From: Escherichia coli
GTDB taxonomy: Bacteria; Pseudomonadota; Gammaproteobacteria; Enterobacterales; Enterobacteriaceae
Direction: 5' to 3' (one strand)
Assembly (NCBI RefSeq): GCF_030013595.1
Contig: NZ_CP122768.1
DNA: 64,000 nt
The first letter of the stretch is position 1; the number at the start of each line of letters is the position of its first letter. The translations under genes and the position numbers were made by a program. The notes under the pieces were generated by a model. That model saw only the letters and a program-made list of their open reading frames with translations. It was not told where the DNA came from and ran no database searches. Shown here in pieces: positions 4,185-64,000 of the stretch.

Positions 4185-4442
4185 CCGCTGTGTGGAGTCG
4201 CATTATAGGGAGAGTTCAAAATGAGTCAACGCATTTTCTAAAGAAATTGTTCGTTCGTCGTAAATTTAAGCAAGATGATCGCAAAACAGACCGTTTTGCG
4301 CAATTTGTCAACGAAAACAATAATGCGTAAGGTTGCAACCCGAACTACATTGAGGAATCAGGCGGGAGTGATAGAATATCGCCCACTCAATTTTTCCAGG
4401 ATTTGCCGGTTGTCGGCATCTTTCTAAACGTAAGGCCATTTC

Positions 4443-29067: not shown

Positions 29068-29362
29068 AGAAAGTTATCCTGAGAATGGCTCACTGAGAAC
29101 CTACGATGTTATGGCTGTATTTACATTTAATTAATCAGTATTTACATCGATATAATAAATGACATCTCTTTGTGGTATATAAGAATAGTTCTCTGCGACA
29201 GGAAGCATATTCCTACAATTGTAAGACTAAAATACTTCTTGCGATAATAACTACAACTGTAAGATAACCCTTTCAAAATGACCGTTGCTCTCTGATTTCT
29301 CATTTCATGCTCACCCAATATGATGGCGGCGTTTTCTAAAACTGTTAAAGAATGAGGTAAGT

Positions 29363-50701: not shown

Positions 50702-51143
50702 ACGTAAACTTTTTCCGGTTGTTGTCGATATCTCCATATCCCTCAACCGGAAAATAATAATACAAAAATGCTTAGCCCAACTAATAATCACCTAATCCAA
50801 ACGCCTCATTCATGTTCTGGTACAGTCGCTCAAATGTACTCCGGATACGCGGTTCGCTGATTTCCAGGACATTGTCGTCATTCAGCGACCTGTCCCGAGT
50901 ATCACGGGCCTGCGAATTCATCAAGGAATGCATTGCAGAGTGAAGTATCGAGTCACGCCATATTTCGCTATCAGGATTCTGTATGATGGTTACATCGCCC
51001 GGCCCAGGGCTGTTTAGTCATCAGCGCTTTCTGACAGTGCTGAGATTTCAACCTGTTGCAGTAAAAATGAGTAGATATAGGGCAAGTGTGCTGCCAAACC
51101 CATCTTTTACGGGGTGAAGGTAGATTTGGTTTGAAGGGTATCT

Positions 51144-51158
51144 GGTGTCCCCTGCAGA
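51144..51158. other. putative prophage att core (attR): 15-nt identity to the 3' end of tRNA-Arg argW
   Basis: Minus strand reads CTGCAGGGGACACCA, matching the argW 3' terminus as recalled, without the rest of the tRNA; lies about 70 bp from the torI-like gene. Confidence 0.45.
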
Positions 51159-51230
51159 CATCTACTTGAGGCGGCAGGGGATTGATTGGAATGGTGTTTT
51201 TTAGATGTGAAAAATATTTTACCCGCTATT

Positions 51231-51431
51231 TTACCCATTGGCGCGGCTTAAGAGCTTATTTTTGAATTCACAATGGTCACGATATAACCATCTTGCTCGC
51301 CCGTGGATAACTTTGGCTTTTGGCAGGTCGCCGGACTTAATCCGGTCATAGATGAAGGTTTTACCGAATCCAGTATCGGCCATGATGAATTTCAAATCAA
51401 CCAGTGAATCAGGCTGTAGTTCGTGTTGCAT
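51231..51431 (-). CDS. torI: AlpA/Xis-family excisionase (recombination directionality factor), TorI-like
   Basis: 66-aa ORF at the prophage edge next to the att core; size and position match KplE1 TorI; identity from recall. Confidence 0.6.
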   Translation of the reverse strand: MQHELQPDSLVDLKFIMADTGFGKTFIYDRIKSGDLPKAKVIHGRARWLYRDHCEFKNKLLSRANG

Positions 51432-51562
51432 GAGTGCTATCTCCGAATAGGGAATCGAACCTGCAAATCAGGCAATAAAAAACCGCCATCAGGCGGCTTG
51501 GTGTTCTTTCAGTTCTTCAATTCGAATATTGGTTACATTGTTTTAATATATGAATAAATAAA

Positions 51563-51775
51563 TTAGCTTTTTTCGTTGCCTTCGCGTTCTTTATTAATTT
51601 TAACAAACTCGTTTTTACCACGCTCTCCAAATGCGTCTTTAGAGTCGTTGTATCCGCAATCGCAGCACACATAATCACCAGACCATCCACGCATTGTTTT
51701 TTCTTTTGCAATATTTCCAGAACCGCATTTTGGACAAGACATATCACTACCTCCAAAGCATGAGTGAGATGACAA
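51563..51775 (-). CDS. small Cys-rich zinc-finger protein (lambda Ea8.5 position)
   Basis: 70-aa ORF with CPKCGSG...CCDCGYN zinc-ribbon-like motifs. Confidence 0.4.
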   Translation of the reverse strand: MSSHSCFGGSDMSCPKCGSGNIAKEKTMRGWSGDYVCCDCGYNDSKDAFGERGKNEFVKINKEREGNEKS

Positions 51776-51838
51776 CGTAACATTGATTGGAGATTAACAA
51801 TAGATTGCTGATGTAAAAGATATGTATAAGCTTCGCTT

Positions 51839-52393
51839 TCAAAGTGGAGGCTCTGGTAGCGGCATCCAGTGTGACGGCTCACATACCACCTCAACACCGT
51901 TCATGTAAAAGAATTGAAATAACCCTTTACCTTTGTGAAACCCTACCATCTGCTCTTTTGTGTCTGAACAATAAACCAAAACATCTTCTTCGTTTGGCAT
52001 CCACTCACTACAGCTTATCCAACCATCTGGAATTACCGGAGAGTTGCCCGACATCTCATTCAACTTGTAAGTCTGGCTTACAGGTTTGGCTTCCAGTTCT
52101 GCAATGCGCTTACCTCCATCCGCGATTACTCCCTCGTAATATTCACGCTGCTCGTTGAGTTTTGATTTTGCTTCCTCAAGCTCAACTCTCAGCTTCCCTA
52201 CCGTTAGCGCAATATCCTCGTTCTCCTGGTCACGGCGTTTGATGTATTGCTGGTTTCTTTCCCGTTCATCCAGCAGTTCCAGCACAATCGATGGTGTTAC
52301 CAATTCATGGAAAAGGTCTGCGTCAAATCCCCAGTCGTCATGCATTGCCTGCTCTGCCGCTTCACGCAGTGCCTGAGAGTTAATTTCGCTCAC
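51839..52393 (-). CDS. Ead/Ea22-like early protein (DUF551-type)
   Basis: 184-aa ORF at the Ea22 position of the lambda early-left operon. Confidence 0.55.
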   Translation of the reverse strand: MSEINSQALREAAEQAMHDDWGFDADLFHELVTPSIVLELLDERERNQQYIKRRDQENEDIALTVGKLRVELEEAKSKLNEQREYYEGVIADGGKRIAELEAKPVSQTYKLNEMSGNSPVIPDGWISCSEWMPNEEDVLVYCSDTKEQMVGFHKGKGLFQFFYMNGVEVVCEPSHWMPLPEPPL

Positions 52394-52611
52394 TTCGAAC
52401 CTCTCTGTTTACTGATAAGTTCCAGATCCTCCTGGCAACTTGCACAAGTCCGACAACCCTGAACGGCCAAGCGTCTTCGTTCATCTATCGGATCGCCACA
52501 CTCACAACAATGAGTGGCAGATATAGCCTGGTGGTTCAGGCGGCGCATTTTTATTGCTGTGTTGCGCTGTAATTCTTCAATTTCTGATGCTGAATCAATG
52601 ATGTCTGCCAT
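52390..52611 (-). CDS. TraR/DksA-family C4 zinc-finger protein
   Basis: 73-aa ORF with CxxC-17-CxxC motif (CCECGDPIDERRRLAVQGCRTCASC). Confidence 0.55.
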   Translation of the reverse strand: MADIIDSASEIEELQRNTAIKMRRLNHQAISATHCCECGDPIDERRRLAVQGCRTCASCQEDLELISKQRGSK

Positions 52612-52709
52612 CTTTCATTAATCCCTGAATTGTTGGTTAATACGCTTGAGGGTGAATGCGAATAATAAAAAAGGAGCCTGTAGCTCCATGATGATTTTGT
52701 TTTTCATGC

Positions 52710-52991
52710 TCACCGTTCCTTAAAGACGCCGTTTAACATGCCGATCGCCAGGCTTAAATGAGTCGGTGTGAATCCCATCAGCGTTACCGTTTCGCGGTGC
52801 TTCTTCAGTACGCTACGGCAAATGTCATCGACGTTTTTATCCGGAAACTGCTGTCTGGCTTTTTTGATTTCATAATTAGCCTGACGGGCAATACTGCGAA
52901 GGGCGTTTTCTTGCTGAGGTGTCATTGAACAAGTCCCATGTCGGCAAGCATAAGCACACAGAATATGAAGCCCGCTGCCAGAAAAATGCAT
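52710..52991 (-). CDS. hypothetical phage early protein
   Basis: 93-aa ORF, co-oriented in the early-left operon; start uncertain. Confidence 0.35.
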   Translation of the reverse strand: MHFSGSGLHILCAYACRHGTCSMTPQQENALRSIARQANYEIKKARQQFPDKNVDDICRSVLKKHRETVTLMGFTPTHLSLAIGMLNGVFKER

Positions 52992-53001
52992 TCAGTGGTT
53001 G

Positions 53002-53193
53002 TCATACCTGGTCTCTCTCATCTGCTTCTGCTTTCGCCACCATCATTTCCAGCTTTTGTGAAAGGGATGTGGCTAACGTATGAAATTCTTCGTCTGTTTC
53101 TACTGGTATTGGCACAAACCTGACTCCAATTTGAGCGAGGCTATGTGCCATCTCGATACTCGTTCTTAACTCAACGGGAGATGCTTTGTGCAT
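53002..53193 (-). CDS. hypothetical phage early protein (lambda orf63 position)
   Basis: 63-aa ORF. Confidence 0.35.
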   Translation of the reverse strand: MHKASPVELRTSIEMAHSLAQIGVRFVPIPVETDEEFHTLATSLSQKLEMMVAKAEADERDQV

Positions 53194-53354
53194 ACAGCCC
53201 CCCGTTTATTATTTATCTCCTCAGCCAGCCGCTGGGCTTTCAGTGGATTTTGGATAACAGAAAGGCCGGGAAATACCCAGCCTCGCTTTGTAACGGAGTA
53301 GACGAAAGTGATCGCGCCTACCCGGATATTATCGTGAGGATGCGTCATCGCCAT
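53166..53354 (-). CDS. hypothetical phage early protein (lambda orf60a position)
   Basis: 62-aa ORF overlapping exo stop. Confidence 0.3.
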
Positions 53355-54025
53355 TGCTCCCCAAATACAAAACCAATTTCAGCCAGTGCCTCGTCCATTT
53401 TTTCGATGAACTCCGGCACCATCTCGTCAAAACTCGCCATGTACTTTTCATCCCGCTCAACCACGACATAATGCAGTCCTTCACGCTTCATACGCGGGTC
53501 ATAGTTGGCAAAGTACCAGGCATCTTTTCGCGTCACCCACATGCTGTACTGCACCTGGGCCATGTAAGCCGACTTTATGGCCTCGAAACCACCGAGCCGG
53601 AACTTCATGAAATCCCGGGAGGTAAACGGGCATTTCAGCTCAAGGCCATTGCCGTCACTGCATAAACCATCGGGAGAGCAGGCGGTGCGCATACTTTCGT
53701 CGCGATAGATGATCGGGGATTCAGTAACATTCACGCCGGAAGTGAATTCAAACAGGGTTCTGGCGTCGTTCTCGTACTGTTTTCCCCAGGCCAGCGCCTT
53801 AGCATTAACTTCCGGAGCCACACCGGTGCAAACCTCAGCCAGCAGGGTGTGGAAGTAGGACATTTTCATGTCAGGCCACTTCTTTCCTGAGCGGGGCTTT
53901 GCTATCACGTTGTGAACTTCTGAAGCGGTGATGACGCCGAGCCGTAATTTGTGCCACGCATCATCCCCCTGTTCGACAGCTCTCACGTCGATCCCGGTAC
54001 GCTGCAGGATAATGTCCGGTGTCAT
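53345..54025 (-). CDS. exo: lambda-type 5'-3' exonuclease (Red-alpha)
   Basis: 226-aa ORF, YqaJ-type recombinase exonuclease; followed by bet and gam. Confidence 0.9.
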
Positions 54026-54807
54026 GCAGCCACCTTCTGTTCAGAGGCTTTCTGTTTCAGGAATCCAAGAGCTTTCACTGCTTCGGCCTGTGTCAGTTCT
54101 GACGATGCGCGAATGTCGCGGCGAAATATCTGGGAACAGAGCGGCAATAAGTCGTCATCCCATGTTTTATCCAGGGCGATCAGCAGAGTGTTAATCTCCT
54201 GCATGGTTTCATCGTTAACCGGAGTGATGTCGCGTTCCGGCTGGCGTTCTGCAGTGTGTGCAGTATTTTCGACAATGCGCTCGGCTTCATCCTTGTCATA
54301 GATACCAGCAAATCCGAAGGCCAGACGGGCACACTGAATCATGGCTTTATGCCGTAACATCCGTTTGGGATGCGACTGCCACGCCCCCGTGATTTCTCTG
54401 CCTTCGCGAGTTTTGAATGGTTCGCGGCGGCATTCATCCATCCATTCGGTAACGCAGATCGGATGATTACGGTCCTTGCGGTAAATCCGGCATGTACAGG
54501 ATTCATTGTCCTGCTCAAAGTCCATGCCATCAAACTGCTGGTTTTCATTGATGATGCGGGACCAGCCATCAACGCCCACCACCGGAACGATGCCGTTCTG
54601 CTTATCAGGGAAGGCGTAAATTTCTTTCGTCCACGGATTAAGGCCGTACTGGTTGGCGACGATCAACAATGCGATGAACTGCGCATCGCTGGCATCACCT
54701 TTAAATGCCGTCTGGCGAAGAGTGGTGATCAGTTCCTGTGGGTCGACAGAATCCATGCCGACACGTTCAGCCAGCTTCCCTGCCAGCGTTGCGAGTGCTG
54801 TACTCAT
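54022..54807 (-). CDS. bet: single-strand annealing protein Bet (Red-beta)
   Basis: 261-aa ORF; overlaps exo start as in lambda. Confidence 0.9.
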
Positions 54808-54812
54808 CCGTT

Positions 54813-55109
54813 TTATACCTCTGAATCAATATCAACCTGGTGGTGAGCAATGGTTTCAACCATGTACCGGATGTGTTCTGCCATGCGCTCCTGAAACTCA
54901 ACATCGTCATCAAACGCACGGGTAATGGCTTTTTTGCTGGCCCCGTGGCGTTGCAAATGATCGATGCATAGCGATTCAAACAGGTGCTGGGGCAGGCCTT
55001 TTTCCATGTCGTCTGCCAGTTCTGCCTCTTTCTCTTCACGAGCGATCTGCTGGTAGTGACGCGCCCAGCTCTGAGCCTCAAGACGATCCTGAATGTAATA
55101 AGCGTTCAT
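54813..55109 (-). CDS. gam: host-nuclease (RecBCD) inhibitor Gam (short form)
   Basis: 98-aa [24 protein letters not shown]... matching lambda GamS as recalled. Confidence 0.9.
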
Positions 55110-55328: not shown

Positions 55329-55461
55329 TTTTTGGGACTCCTGGCTGATTAAGTATGTCGATAAGGCGTTTCCATCCGTCACGTAATTTACGGGTGATTC
55401 GTTCAAGTAAAGATTCGGAAGGGCAGCCAGCAACAGGCCACCCTGCAATGGCATATTGCAT
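55297..55461 (-). CDS. cIII: cIII (FtsH protease inhibitor)
   Basis: Manual translation gives [54 protein letters not shown] (54 aa); below ORF-track cutoff. Confidence 0.85.
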   Translation of the reverse strand: MQYAIAGWPVAGCPSESLLERITRKLRDGWKRLIDILNQPGVPKNGSNTYGYPD

Positions 55462-55533
55462 GGTGTGCTCCTTATTTATACATAACGAAAAACGCCTCGA
55501 GTGAAGCGTTATTGGTATGCGGTAAAGCCGCGC

Positions 55534-56356: not shown

Positions 56357-56557
56357 TTAGGCAGCCTTGTTGTTCTGTTTACCAAGTTCTCTGGCAATCA
56401 TTGCCGTCGTTCGTATTGCCCATTTATCGACATATTTCCCATCTTCCATTACAGGAAACATTTCTTCAGGCTTAACCATGCATTCCGATTGCAGCTTGCA
56501 TCCATTGCATCGTTTGAATTGTCCACACCATTGATTTGTATCAATAGTCGTAGTCAT
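56357..56557 (-). CDS. ral: Ral-like small Cys-rich protein (restriction alleviation), tentative
   Basis: 66-aa ORF with CGQFKRCNGC motif at the ral position and size; identity from recall. Confidence 0.5.
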   Translation of the reverse strand: MTTTIDTNQWCGQFKRCNGCKLQSECMVKPEEMFPVMEDGKYVDKWAIRTTAMIARELGKQNNKAA

Positions 56558-56685: not shown

Positions 56686-56958
56686 TCATCTTGCTGTCAG
56701 CTGTTTGGATTTCCTGTAGCCTGCCGCGTAAATGGCTACATTTGGAAGACAAGTTGAGCCTTCATATTTTCTGGTCAACGTTGTCAGTGTTATTACTTCT
56801 GCTCTCATTACTGGTTTGCGTTTGCATTGTAAGACCACTCGTGAAGGGGTTGGCCTGTGTAGCTTGTCAGAGCTGATCGCCTCCTGACTTTGCAGGTTTG
56901 CACGACGAGCTCTACGGCGAGAAGCTGCGGTGCCTTTAAATTCTGTTTTTCTGGACAT
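56686..56958 (-). CDS. N-like transcription antiterminator (P22 gene 24 type)
   Basis: ORF 56686-57030; start refined to ATG 56958 after GGGAGGA RBS; arginine-rich motif AASRRRARRANLQ; C-terminus ...IYAAGYRKSKQLTAR. Confidence 0.75.
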   Translation of the reverse strand: MSRKTEFKGTAASRRRARRANLQSQEAISSDKLHRPTPSRVVLQCKRKPVMRAEVITLTTLTRKYEGSTCLPNVAIYAAGYRKSKQLTAR

Positions 56959-57056
56959 AGATTCCTCCCGAATAAACTTTGGCGATGCAATCTCGAAGCT
57001 CCTCCTGAGACGGTTGCTTCGGCATTGCATCCCACAGCTTATATGGTTGGGTGATC

Positions 57057-57397: not shown

Positions 57398-58255
57398 TTA
57401 TCGTTTATTTCTTTGATGTTTCTTTGCTGACTCAGCTTGAGTGTTTCCATACCTGCGTTTACCGCTATTGTTTTTTCCTCTAGGCTTGCCTTTTTTTCGA
57501 TCTTCCCACCAGTCAGGTGCCGGGTCTGGCTCAACATGTAAAGCATCGGCAAGTCCTGATATCAAGCTGTATGACTGAACTCCATCAATGTGCTCTGACA
57601 GTGATGGGGTAACATTCTGTCTTAGTGGATCAAGAATAAAATCAATACCTTTAATTCTGGCGTGTTTGGCGGCAGGCACAAAGTCTGAGTCCCCAGCAAC
57701 AAGGACAATTACATCAACAAGTTTTTCATAAGCTAAAGTCGTGATATCCATCCCTAGCTTGATATCAACTTGTTTTTGTTTGATGTCATAGTAAAAATCA
57801 TCATTTGTCAGTTCATCCCATTTTTTCGTTCCTTTCATCAGAGCATCAAGGGAGAATGTAGTTAGTTGCCATCGCTTATTATCAACAAGATTCCCTAATC
57901 TTAAGGCTGTTTTTCGAGTTTTTCTTAACTCTTCATGCAGCTCCGTTCTCAGAATATATGATTTTTCGAGTTTGAAATTCTTGCGACCAGGCGTCTTATT
58001 GCCAGGCTCAGGAAGTGGAAGGCGTGTTTGAATGTCGAGTGGTGGACAGTCATAGAAGTAAATTCTATAAAGCTCAAGCGGTTCCCTACGTTCTTGTGAT
58101 TGACGTTTTCCATTAAGATGGGAAAGAACCATTGACCATATTACTTTCATTATGCATTGCGCAGTCAGTTCATGCTCGGCGAAGTGTTTACGATGCGTAG
58201 CATGAACACGCTGCATGAAAAAACCCGCATCAATTAAAATTGCTGCTTTCTTCAT
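57398..58255 (-). CDS. NYN/LabA-like (PIN-fold) nuclease-domain protein with Lys/Arg-rich C-terminal tail; candidate prophage exclusion/defence protein in the rex position
   Basis: 285-aa ORF: N-terminal AILIDAGFF and central VLVAGDSDFVPAAKHARIKGIDF NYN-type motifs; basic tail; between cI and pL/N; AT-rich. Confidence 0.75.
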   Translation of the reverse strand: MKKAAILIDAGFFMQRVHATHRKHFAEHELTAQCIMKVIWSMVLSHLNGKRQSQERREPLELYRIYFYDCPPLDIQTRLPLPEPGNKTPGRKNFKLEKSYILRTELHEELRKTRKTALRLGNLVDNKRWQLTTFSLDALMKGTKKWDELTNDDFYYDIKQKQVDIKLGMDITTLAYEKLVDVIVLVAGDSDFVPAAKHARIKGIDFILDPLRQNVTPSLSEHIDGVQSYSLISGLADALHVEPDPAPDWWEDRKKGKPRGKNNSGKRRYGNTQAESAKKHQRNKR

Positions 58256-63507: not shown

Positions 63508-64000
63508 GTTAATAAATGGCAATGCCATCAAAATGACAAGCATTGAAATCGCTGAGTTGGTGGGTAAGCGTCATGACAATGTGAAACGTACCATCGAAAC
63601 GCTGGCTAAAAATGGTGTTATCCGGCTTCCTCAAATTGAGGTTTCCGAAAGAATCAATAACTTAGGGTTCAATGTTCAGTACGAGCATTACGTCTTCGAA
63701 GGCGAACAAGGTAAGCGAGATAGTATTGTTGTTGTTGCCCAGTTGTCGCCAGAGTTCACCGCTCGCCTTGTTGACCGCTGGCGAGAGCTTGAAGAAACTG
63801 CGGCTAATATCCCCAAAACGCTACCAGAAGCGTTGCGCCTTGCTGCTGATCTTGCTGAGCAGAAAATGCAACTGGAAAACCAGCTCGCAATTGCCGCACC
63901 TAAAGTTGAGTTTGCCGATCGTGTTGGCGAGGCCAGCGGAATTTTGATTGGAAACTTTGCAAAGGTTGTTGGAATTGGTCAAAACAAACTGTTTGCGTGG
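63500..64000 (+). CDS. Rha/Roi-like phage regulatory protein, 5' portion (runs off window end)
   Basis: ATG 63500 overlapping ninF stop; N-terminus MNELINGNAIKMTSIEIAELVGKRHDNVKRTIETL typical of the Phage_pRha family; open to 64000. Confidence 0.6.
   Translation, partial: MNELINGNAIKMTSIEIAELVGKRHDNVKRTIETLAKNGVIRLPQIEVSERINNLGFNVQYEHYVFEGEQGKRDSIVVVAQLSPEFTARLVDRWRELEETAANIPKTLPEALRLAADLAEQKMQLENQLAIAAPKVEFADRVGEASGILIGNFAKVVGIGQNKLFAW

Follow-up and report, generated by a model that had tools for sequence, protein, structure and literature searches.

[quoted passage not shown] The definition of the conserved gene block, its expression, and the assignment of its members as pro-lytic or pro-lysogenic are given in PMC8614690. 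According to published modeling, Orf60a and Orf61 would adopt small DNA-binding-like folds, and Orf63 would form a helical dimer; an NMR structure of lambda Orf63 has been reported (PMC10869804), Orf61 was predicted by others to be homeodomain-like, and lambda Orf61 was described as truncated (PMC8614690). According to a 2022 mBio report (PMC9239242), lambda Orf73 binds RNA polymerase, inhibits rRNA and ribosomal protein promoters without ppGpp, slows host growth, and increases the phage yield 3- to 4-fold. The deletion assays in PMC8614690 classify orf73 as pro-lysogenic, a role at odds with the increased lytic yield given in PMC9239242. Lambda Ea22 is tetrameric and pro-lysogenic. The domain structure and variable C-termini of Ea22 have been described (PMC7093339 and PMC10834534), and the experimentally studied Ea22 proteins share a terminal K/RGE tripeptide (PMC7093339). 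EaG of phage P22 is listed without an assigned function (PMC4837284).

[quoted passage not shown] Pfam and PHROG profile searches gave strong family matches for all six. An earlier sequence-only reading of this DNA had reported six such ORFs and had called ea/ead-type genes, including a DUF551/Ea22-like protein, a TraR/DksA zinc finger, and a second zinc ribbon; the ORFs are real, and the profile matches bear out these calls. We assign positions 51563 to 53354, with a probability of about 0.9, to the "exo-xis region" of a lambdoid prophage, i.e., the distal end of the early operon transcribed leftward from pL. Judged by their sequences, five of the six ORFs are the conserved block orf60a-orf63-orf61-orf73-ea22, and the sixth is eaG. 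The prophage that carries the cluster is inserted beside the cscKB sucrose genes. The genes of the cluster and its two neighbors are as follows.

51231 to 51431, minus strand: TorI-type excisionase gene, 66 aa, last gene of the leftward operon; phrog_66 (excisionase)
51563 to 51742, minus strand: eaG, encoding a 59-aa C4 zinc ribbon protein (C3, C6, C26, and C29) with a disordered Lys/Glu-rich tail; homologue of P22 EaG, phrog_2945
51839 to 52393, minus strand: ea22-like gene, 184 aa, with a short N-terminal domain, a long coiled coil, and a C-terminal DUF551 domain; PF13935 and PF04448
52390 to 52611, minus strand: orf73, encoding a TraR/DksA-family C4 zinc finger protein of 73 aa; PF01258 and phrog_54
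52710 to 52925, minus strand: orf61, 71-aa form; phrog_303 (E = 1.2e-42)
53002 to 53193, minus strand: orf63, 63 aa, DUF1382, small helical dimer; PF07131 (106.4 bits)
53166 to 53348, minus strand: orf60a, 60 aa, DUF1317; PF07026 (133.2 bits)
53345 to 54025, minus strand: exo (lambda exonuclease), upstream neighbor in the operon; 98.7% identical to lambda Exo, PF09588 match

The genes are tightly packed, with stop/start overlaps at exo/orf60a (ATGA) and at orf73/ea22, where the GTG start of the ea22-like gene overlaps the orf73 stop codon (GTGA). Upstream in the operon lie genes for an N-like antiterminator, ral (lambda type, 56357 to 56557), gam, bet, and exo, and beyond them the repressor, cro-like, cII, O, and P genes. 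The cluster had been placed upstream of exo by the sequence-only reading; transcription runs pL > N > ... > bet > exo > cluster > xis, which puts it downstream. The excisionase is 100% identical to the "response regulator inhibitor TorI" annotated in E. coli T43 and N767. Rfam found a single phage RNA element in the window, the lambda cIII thermoregulator at 55416 to 55474, and no known RNA family at positions 51200 to 53400. A pattern scan revealed one further feature in the distal part of the operon.

51480 to 51499, minus strand: terminator-like hairpin (8-bp stem and U run) between eaG and the excisionase gene

The RNA fold of this hairpin has an energy of -13.7 kcal/mol, yet its z score is only -1.16. 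It lies inside a 68-nt stretch (51469 to 51536) that blastn found to be 97% identical to lambda 29098 to 29165, just upstream of lambda xis, and the P22 record L06296 annotates the stretch around the hairpin as identical to lambda 29106 to 29165.

The proposed operation of the cluster is as follows. The minus-strand order would be pL, then N, ral, cIII, kil, gam, bet, and exo, then the cluster, then the TorI-type excisionase gene. In the lysogen, the cluster would be silent, with the repressor on pL; within minutes of infection or induction, N-antiterminated transcription would express it and would pass both the hairpin described above and a second terminator-like hairpin at 52673 to 52687. 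The products would be accessory and not essential, and they would modulate the host and the choice between lysis and lysogeny.

Comparison with public collections revealed that exact copies of five of the six protein sequences are already deposited, four of them on at least 1,000 contigs each, and that part of the block is matched in 5,102 of 5,426 complete E. coli genomes. In related viral contigs, orf60a-orf63-orf61-orf73 is kept in 74 to 80 of 80, and the part beyond orf73 varies, which agrees with PMC8614690. Genes swapped in around ea22 and eaG among the relatives encode a dATP/dGTP pyrophosphohydrolase, DUF4752, DUF2737, and DUF4222. Most of the changes from lambda in orf60a, orf73, exo, and bet are synonymous; pN/pS, based on very few changes, is 0.16 for orf60a, 0.14 for orf73, and 0.55 for orf63. 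The cluster is an already known, ordinary lambda-type early block, with four genes nearly identical to those of lambda, and its significance is small: most E. coli genomes carry such a gene block. The description of the region as poorly characterized is largely out of date, since five of the six genes form a named conserved block of lambda and Stx phages with published phenotypes and structures.

Decay is seen at the same spot in other genomes. Among the closest complete genomes, orf60a is frameshifted and ea22 and DUF551 are truncated to fragments in strain T43, and ea22 is truncated in strain N767; lambda itself has a frameshifted orf61. The cluster might be a remnant within a cryptic prophage, retained only through recent acquisition and without present function for phage or host. 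However, the six ORFs of the window are intact, as are the N, repressor, cro-like, cII, O, and P genes; the substitutions relative to lambda are biased to synonymous sites; and the block is kept not only in the viral contigs but also in functional phages (lambda, P22, HK620, and Stx phages). The integrase gene is absent from the window, which ends at position 64000. This absence is compatible with a KplE1-type module, in which int presumably lies at the opposite end of the prophage. Phages can do without the region under laboratory conditions (PMC6213356 and PMC8614690), in line with the earlier statement that it is non-essential for the phage, but deletions give measurable phenotypes (PMC6213356, PMC5575149, and PMC9239242). 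A relic without function is, on this evidence, very improbable, and the cluster is best read as the exo-xis region of a lambdoid prophage.

Within the promoter-proximal part of the block, Orf60a and Orf63 are 96.8% and 93.7% identical to their lambda counterparts. The longest ORF of orf60a begins at 53354 (62 aa), and this form occurs on 24 contigs; because of the ATGA coupling with the exo stop codon, the start is most likely ATG 53348, giving 60 aa. For orf61, the longest ORF reaches ATG 52991 and encodes 93 aa, the form used for Phi24B Orf61, and the PGAP annotation gives the 71-aa form. In lambda, a 1-nt insertion splits orf61 into two frames; the orf61 of the window is intact, as in Stx phages. 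Two micro-ORFs accompany orf61.

52922 to 53005, minus strand: 27-codon hydrophobic ORF between orf63 and orf61, mostly unannotated, MTTTECIFLAAGFIFCVLMLADMGLVQ
52618 to 52707, minus strand: 29-codon micro-ORF between orf61 and orf73 (31 codons if read from GTG 52713), from the ORF list

The 27-codon ORF is joined by ATGA overlaps to the stop codon of orf63 and to the start codon of the 71-aa orf61. Its peptide is identical in lambda, its frame is favored by the substitution pattern among 43 distinct related sequences, and 79 of the 80 related viral contigs carry the ORF; the exact peptide has been called on 981 contigs as a "hypothetical protein." These sequence features suggest that the 93-aa ORF is probably a separate 27-codon ORF followed by a 71-aa Orf61. 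The orf61 gene model, used at 93 aa in published structural modeling, may thus be wrong at its N terminus, and this is one point on which the locus retains value. The second micro-ORF contains the hairpin at 52673 to 52687, and its exact peptide has been called on 999 contigs. The lambda equivalent has 31 aa; by its equal length, it would correspond to the 31-aa lambda peptide "orf2313," which was seen by ribosome profiling according to PMC8614690. As for function, Orf60a, Orf61, and Orf63 are pro-lytic in deletion assays, and DNA binding by Orf60a and Orf61 is an idea suggested by models.

Orf73 matched PF01258 (zf-dskA_traR) with 35.8 bits, above the cutoff of 24.9, and phrog_54 with an E value of 2e-25; the score for the NCBIfam model TIGR02419 was slightly under the cutoff (55.7 versus 59.7 bits). 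The protein also matches the sequences of the solved TraR structures 5w1s and 6n57. It is 98.6% identical to lambda Orf73 (72 of 73 residues), and V49A is the sole difference. The hallmarks of the Orf73 subgroup, as given in PMC8614690 and PMC9239242, are a DxxDxA motif, four zinc cysteines, and ExxR[K/L]; all are intact in the window protein (D3-I-I-D6-S-A8; C35, C38, C56, and C59; E44-R-R-R47-L48). Because of this identity and the intact motifs, the protein is expected to function as that of lambda does. We infer that it is a binder of the RNA polymerase secondary channel: the N-terminal DxxDxA helix would enter the channel and inhibit rRNA and ribosomal protein promoters without ppGpp, and this activity would slow host growth and raise the phage yield. 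The test of RNA polymerase binding and of effects on rRNA promoters that the sequence-only reading had proposed is already published for lambda Orf73, one residue away from the window protein (PMC9239242). With TraR of the F plasmid, Orf73 shares a length of 73 aa, the DxxDxA tip, the C4 zinc site, and the ExxR[K/L] motif, but it is only a distant relative (phmmer E of about 1e-4). Unlike TraR, lambda Orf73 is reported not to increase transcription at the promoters tested (PMC9239242).

The ea22-like protein combines an Ead_Ea22 domain (PF13935, 100.7 bits, residues 2 to 101) with DUF551 (PF04448, 63.8 bits, residues 124 to 183). Residues 1 to 121 are 82% identical to lambda Ea22, and the comparison with lambda found no match beyond residue 121. 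The C terminus reads WMPLPEPPL, without the terminal K/RGE and without the lambda C-terminal domain. In the AlphaFold2 model, a single helix spans residues 34 to 102 (pLDDT of 84 to 97, mostly above 90), and DUF551 (residues 122 to 184) reached a pLDDT of only 50 to 63 with 40 homologues, too low to support a comparison of folds. A sequence search against solved structures gave chance coiled-coil matches only and no solved Ea22 C-terminal domain. Of at least 7,986 homologues found, the 120 best that were listed all have the Ead_Ea22 plus DUF551 architecture, and nearly every 90%-identity cluster of the family has a single member. The exact sequence was absent from a collection of 15 billion proteins, and among complete E. 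coli genomes none matches the gene over 80% or more of its length; a partial protein (P0082) is 100% identical over 71% of the length. An accidental fusion was considered and rejected, because members of the family as a rule have both domains and the identical partial protein exists. The protein would be a coiled-coil oligomer that favors lysogeny and displays DUF551 in place of the lambda C-terminal domain. The pro-lysogenic phenotype is an extrapolation by analogy, since the window protein has neither the lambda C-terminal domain nor the K/RGE end of the tested Ea22 proteins.

The longest ORF of eaG begins at TTG 51775 (70 aa), but the start is most likely ATG 51742, giving 59 aa, because GGAGG lies 7 nt upstream of it. 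EaG matched phrog_2945 (E = 1.6e-31) and is, over its full length, 94.3% identical to P22 eaG and 97.1% identical to HK620 hkaD; the exact 59-aa sequence is found on at least 1,000 contigs under the name "Eag protein." The AlphaFold2 model consists of a zinc ribbon at residues 1 to 41 (pLDDT of 76 to 86) followed by the disordered tail. A Foldseek search against the PDB revealed generic ribbons only (TFIIB/Brf1, eIF2-beta, and RPB9-like), none with an E value of 0.001 or below, and gave no clue to function.

The best Pfam match of EaG is Lar_restr_allev (PF14354; E = 7e-5), several EaG clusters bear a precomputed PF14354 label, and BLASTP aligned EaG to K-12 RalR with 30% identity over 54 aa (E = 0.001). 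In the Rac prophage, RalR is encoded at an analogous place between recT and xisR, and relatives differ widely in the sector around ea22 and eaG. These points would fit an anti-defense role, in which EaG and the other non-lambda member are counter-defense factors and EaG is a Lar/RalR-like restriction alleviator or small DNase toxin made early from pL. However, the EaG score (23.4 bits) is below the PF14354 gathering threshold of 28.6 bits, and K-12 RalR scores 53.5 bits. The 10 remote EaG relatives obtained when 1.84 billion representatives were searched exhaustively with phmmer all stayed below 28.6 bits (17 to 22 bits or no score), and most of them fit generic zinc ribbon models better (TFIIB and HVO_2753). 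RalR lacks the GWSGDYxC signature of EaG, the alignable part is essentially a CxxC...CxxC ribbon, and the Foldseek matches are likewise generic. In addition, the prophage already has a lambda-type ral gene, and PADLOC, with its models of anti-phage defense systems, gave no match for the six proteins except for a single weak one of Orf73 (E = 0.0065) that is probably due to chance. Membership of EaG in the Lar/RalR family was therefore rejected as sub-threshold, and the similarity was read as a generic zinc ribbon resemblance. The anti-defense suggestion of the sequence-only reading thus found no backing, and a counter-defense role of these two proteins is highly unlikely. With its single ribbon and disordered charged tail, EaG is, we infer, most likely a binder of a host or phage macromolecule.

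A broader reading is unlikely as well. EaG and the Ea22-coiled-coil/DUF551 hybrid could be effectors against the host or its defenses, with Ea22 as a platform for swapped C-terminal "warhead" domains, EaG as a new family of zinc ribbon inhibitors and possibly a functional Lar analogue, and the 27-aa peptide as a real membrane micro-protein missed in the lambda annotation. Swapped C-terminal domains on an Ea22 scaffold would account for the single-member clusters noted above. Apart from the orf61 gene model, the remaining value of the locus lies in EaG and DUF551, which occur commonly among P22-like and lambda-like phages but have no known function. The possibility that all the genes match characterized lambda ea proteins, raised in the sequence-only reading, holds for four genes and for half of ea22; it does not hold for eaG, a named P22 gene outside lambda.

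Comparison with described phages places the locus closest to the exo-xis region of phage lambda (29.8 to 31.35 kb), with the same gene order, strand, and position after exo and with DNA that is 96.9% identical over 2,011 nt. The two differ in that lambda has the frameshifted orf61 and an Ea22 with its own C-terminal domain, whereas the window has an intact orf61 and a DUF551 C terminus. Furthermore, lambda ea8.5 and orf55 are replaced by eaG in the window, and the excisionase is of the TorI type and not lambda Xis. Stx phages Phi24B and 933W have the same five-gene block with a full-length orf61, and Phi24B Orf61 is annotated with 93 aa, the longest ORF of the window (PMC8614690). The Ea22 of Stx phages has extra N- and C-terminal regions and a K/RGE end (PMC7093339), whereas the window protein ends in DUF551, and the variable genes downstream differ as well. 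The Lar/RalR protein of the Rac prophage (PF14354) is also a small zinc ribbon protein (64 aa) encoded between recombination genes and xis, and it is weakly similar to EaG; unlike Rac RalR, EaG and its relatives fall below the PF14354 threshold and have a GWSGDY signature of their own. P22 EaG and HK620 HkaD have the same 59-aa length as the window protein and the same place near xis in the early-left region, and they show no difference of substance from it.

Analysis of window positions 51563-53354 revealed six small ORFs (orf60a, orf63, orf61, orf73, an ea22-like gene and eaG) encoding proteins of 59 to 184 amino acids. All six lie on the minus strand, in agreement with the cluster of small co-oriented ORFs proposed by the sequence-only reading. 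That reading placed the cluster upstream of exo; the order of transcription puts it downstream. The relevant features are as follows:

56686-57030: N-like antiterminator gene, in the same transcription unit as the cluster
56357-56557: ral gene, in the same transcription unit as the cluster
55416-55474, minus strand: lambda cIII thermoregulator RNA (Rfam RF01804, Lambda_thermo, 88.5 bits)
54813-55109, minus strand: gam, precedes the cluster
54022-54807, minus strand: bet, precedes the cluster
53345-54025, minus strand: exo, precedes the cluster
51231-51431, minus strand: gene for a TorI-type excisionase of 66 amino acids, comes after the cluster

Past the ral and N-like genes lie genes for a CI-type repressor, a cro-like gene, cII, O and P. 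Together, these surroundings place the cluster in the distal pL operon of a lambdoid prophage. The Rfam match confirms that a lambda-type element controlling cIII translation is present in this prophage. Stop and start codons overlap at exo/orf60a (ATGA) and at orf73/ea22 (GTGA), orf60a and orf63 overlap by 28 nt, and the ATG of eaG is preceded by GGAGG at a distance of 7 nt. A 285-aa ORF (57398-58255, minus strand; phrog_5783, E=1.5e-119) was observed between the N-like and repressor genes, a site typical for accessory (moron) or exclusion genes.

Comparison of window 52091-54100 with lambda (NC_001416) by tblastn/blastn revealed 96.9% DNA identity over 2011 nt, with protein identities of 96.8% for Orf60a, 93.7% for Orf63, 98.6% for Orf73 and 98.7% for Exo. 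Orf60a matched the DUF1317 model (133 bits), Orf63 the DUF1382 model (106 bits) and Orf61 phrog_303 (E=1.2e-42). Public collections already contain exact copies of five of the six proteins, four of them on at least 1000 contigs each and the 62-aa form of Orf60a on 24. The differences from lambda are biased toward synonymous sites, with pN/pS values of 0.16 for orf60a, 0.14 for orf73, 0.07 for exo and 0.06 for bet; the value for orf63 was 0.55, based on only six changes. In 80 related viral contigs, gathered with orf61 as the query and hence all containing it, orf60a, orf63 and orf73 were each present in 74 to 79. The genes past orf73 vary: some contigs carry the lambda-type ea22 C terminus, ea8.5 and orf55, others carry DUF551 variants, and eaG occurs in only two.

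The predicted TraR/DksA-type C4 zinc finger was recovered as Orf73, 98.6% identical to lambda Orf73 and matching zf-dskA_traR with 35.8 bits (cut-off, 24.9). For lambda Orf73, a published study (PMC9239242) shows binding of the purified protein to RNA polymerase and inhibition of rRNA and r-protein promoters at concentrations below those required for DksA. Lambda Orf73 also complements a dksA-null strain, slows host growth when produced from pL and makes the phage yield 3- to 4-fold higher; the effect is lost with D3A/D6A substitutions (PMC9239242). The window protein differs from lambda Orf73 only by V49A and retains D3xxD6xA8, the cysteines C35/C38/C56/C59 and E44xxR47L48, which argues with high confidence that it would work by the lambda Orf73 mechanism. 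The RNA polymerase and rRNA promoter experiment proposed for this protein has already been carried out, using a protein that differs by a single conservative substitution.

Published work on orf60a, orf61 and orf63, taken together (PMC6213356, PMC5575149, PMC10869804, PMC8614690), reports expression after infection or induction, pro-lytic deletion phenotypes and AlphaFold/RoseTTAFold models that point to small folds of a DNA-binding-like type; the structure of Orf63 has been solved by NMR (PMC10869804). The 93-aa ORF at 52710-52991 is the counterpart of full-length Stx-phage Orf61. In lambda (NC_001416 30839-31024; positions 4249-4434 of the lambda comparison locus L001), one extra A in an A-run, corresponding to about window 52866, splits the Orf61 domain over two frames, so that the annotated 61-aa lambda orf61 is a frameshifted product. 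A published comment that lambda Orf61 seems to be truncated (PMC8614690) fits this. Some NCBI records name 71-aa Orf61 homologs (window 52710-52925) "cell division protein ZapA". This name looks unsupported, since no model in Pfam or NCBIfam, the ZapA one among them, matched the 93-aa ORF, which includes the whole 71-aa sequence, at E<=0.01.

Between orf63 and orf61, a 27-codon ORF (53005-52922, minus strand) encodes the hydrophobic peptide MTTTECIFLAAGFIFCVLMLADMGLVQ (GRAVY 1.62), which is identical in lambda. Its ATG overlaps the orf63 stop codon and its stop codon overlaps the ATG of the 71-aa orf61, with ATGA at both junctions. Variable sites in the stretch common to the 27-codon and 93-aa frames were compared in 43 distinct related sequences, with codons classified by hand. 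The 27-codon frame showed six synonymous sites (52997, 52994 with two alleles, 52988, 52973, 52934 and 52925), three non-synonymous sites and loss of the start codon in one sequence, versus one synonymous and four non-synonymous sites (H>Y, G>R, T>A, M>V) in the 93-aa frame. This pattern favors the 27-codon frame over an N-terminal extension of Orf61. The 71-aa form is the PGAP annotation; the 93-aa form was used in published modeling, in which the Phi24B Orf61 model is well defined only from residue 24 (PMC8614690). Together with the ATGA coupling, these points make the order orf63, 27-aa peptide, 71-aa orf61 likely. The sample is small, its members are closely related, and the lambda ribosome-profiling review lists only 7-aa and 31-aa extra peptides in the region (PMC8614690); the gene order is hence a lead, not a result. 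MTTTECIFLAAGFIFCVLMLADMGLVQ is called "hypothetical protein" on 981 contigs, and the ORF is absent from the annotation of the lambda, imm21, T43 and N767 records. A second micro-ORF (52618-52707/52713, minus strand; 29/31 codons; MKNKIIMELQAPFLLFAFTLKRINQQFRD) was observed between orf61 and orf73, containing a terminator-like hairpin at 52673-52687 (-13.4 kcal/mol, z -2.07). Its lambda version has 31 aa and is probably the 31-aa ribosome-profiling peptide.

The expected DUF551/Ea22-like protein has 184 aa, with an Ead_Ea22 domain (residues 2-101, 100.7 bits) and a DUF551 domain (residues 124-183, 63.8 bits); residues 1-121 are 82% identical to lambda Ea22. Published work (PMC7093339, PMC10834534) describes Ea22 as a coiled-coil tetramer whose C-terminal domain varies and whose phenotype is pro-lysogenic. 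The AF2 model of the window protein has one long helix at 34-102 (pLDDT 84-97); after a disordered linker (106-121) comes DUF551, modeled as a small, poorly resolved beta domain. Neither the lambda C-terminal domain nor the K/RGE end of the tested Ea22 proteins is present in it, and transfer of their phenotype would be an extrapolation. The exact sequence was not found in a collection of 15 billion proteins, nor did any complete E. coli genome contain 80% of the gene as one uninterrupted piece. A new architecture was ruled out, since the best 120 of at least 7986 homologs all contain both domains. Among the matches listed, the best full-length one is 79% identical, and a partial one shows 100% identity over 71% of the length, which indicates another allele of a very mosaic family. 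Nearly all 90%-identity clusters of this family have one member. The ea22/DUF551 locus is a hot spot of rearrangement (window 51839-52393; comparison loci L002, 4240-5187, and L003, 2240-3426); copies are truncated or split in the closest complete genomes, and genes for dATP/dGTP pyrophosphohydrolase, DUF4752, DUF2737 or DUF4222 are swapped in beside it. eaG and the DUF551 segment have a G+C content of 0.38-0.40, lower than the 0.47-0.54 of the conserved block, exo and bet, which is consistent with a mosaic origin.

The CPKC...CDC protein, the second zinc-ribbon protein anticipated from the sequence, corresponds to P22 EaG (94.3% identical) and HK620 HkaD (97.1%) and is named "Eag protein" in RefSeq. 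The function of P22 EaG is listed as "unknown" (PMC4837284). The AF2 model shows a zinc ribbon (residues 1-41) followed by a disordered charged tail, and Foldseek searches with it returned generic zinc ribbons only, with no significant match. The family is narrow, with only 17 representatives at E<=0.001 among 1.84 billion proteins and 35 clusters in a 5.8-billion set, many of them frameshifted copies. C3, P4, C6, S8, K13, G22, D23, C26, C29 and F38 are invariant in the alignment, and close relatives share a GWSGDYxC signature. Lar/RalR of the Rac prophage occupies an analogous position, between recT and xisR, and a Lar-like function of EaG is possible. However, EaG scored 23.4 bits against PF14354 (RalR, 53.5; cut-off, 28.6), ten remote relatives also fell below the cut-off, often preferring other ribbon models, and the BLASTP likeness to RalR (30% identity, E=0.001) lies mostly in the cysteine knuckles; membership in the Lar family is therefore not supported. 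The suggestion of anti-defence factors found no backing in the PADLOC defence models, which matched none of the six proteins except Orf73, weakly (E=0.0065) and probably by chance.

The excisionase shows 100% identity to a protein that carries the name TorI in the annotation of other E. coli genomes. Its match to the PADLOC model mad1 (E=7.6e-14) is presumably due to the HTH fold. Chromosomal cscK and cscB lie left of its gene. No integrase ORF was found between the excisionase gene and cscB (50702-51230), where relatives are annotated only with a short DUF4942 pseudogene fragment. This arrangement fits a KplE1-like module, in which the integrase would lie at the far prophage end, beyond the window. 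A 68-nt stretch upstream of the gene (51469-51536, minus strand) matches lambda 29098-29165 at 97% identity. In lambda, this segment overlaps the 3' end of orf55 and lies directly before xis, a gene unrelated to this excisionase; the identity to lambda is also noted in the P22 record. The window copy includes an 8-bp hairpin with a U-run (51480-51499) and may represent either a terminator that has been conserved or a mosaic junction.

[quoted passage not shown]
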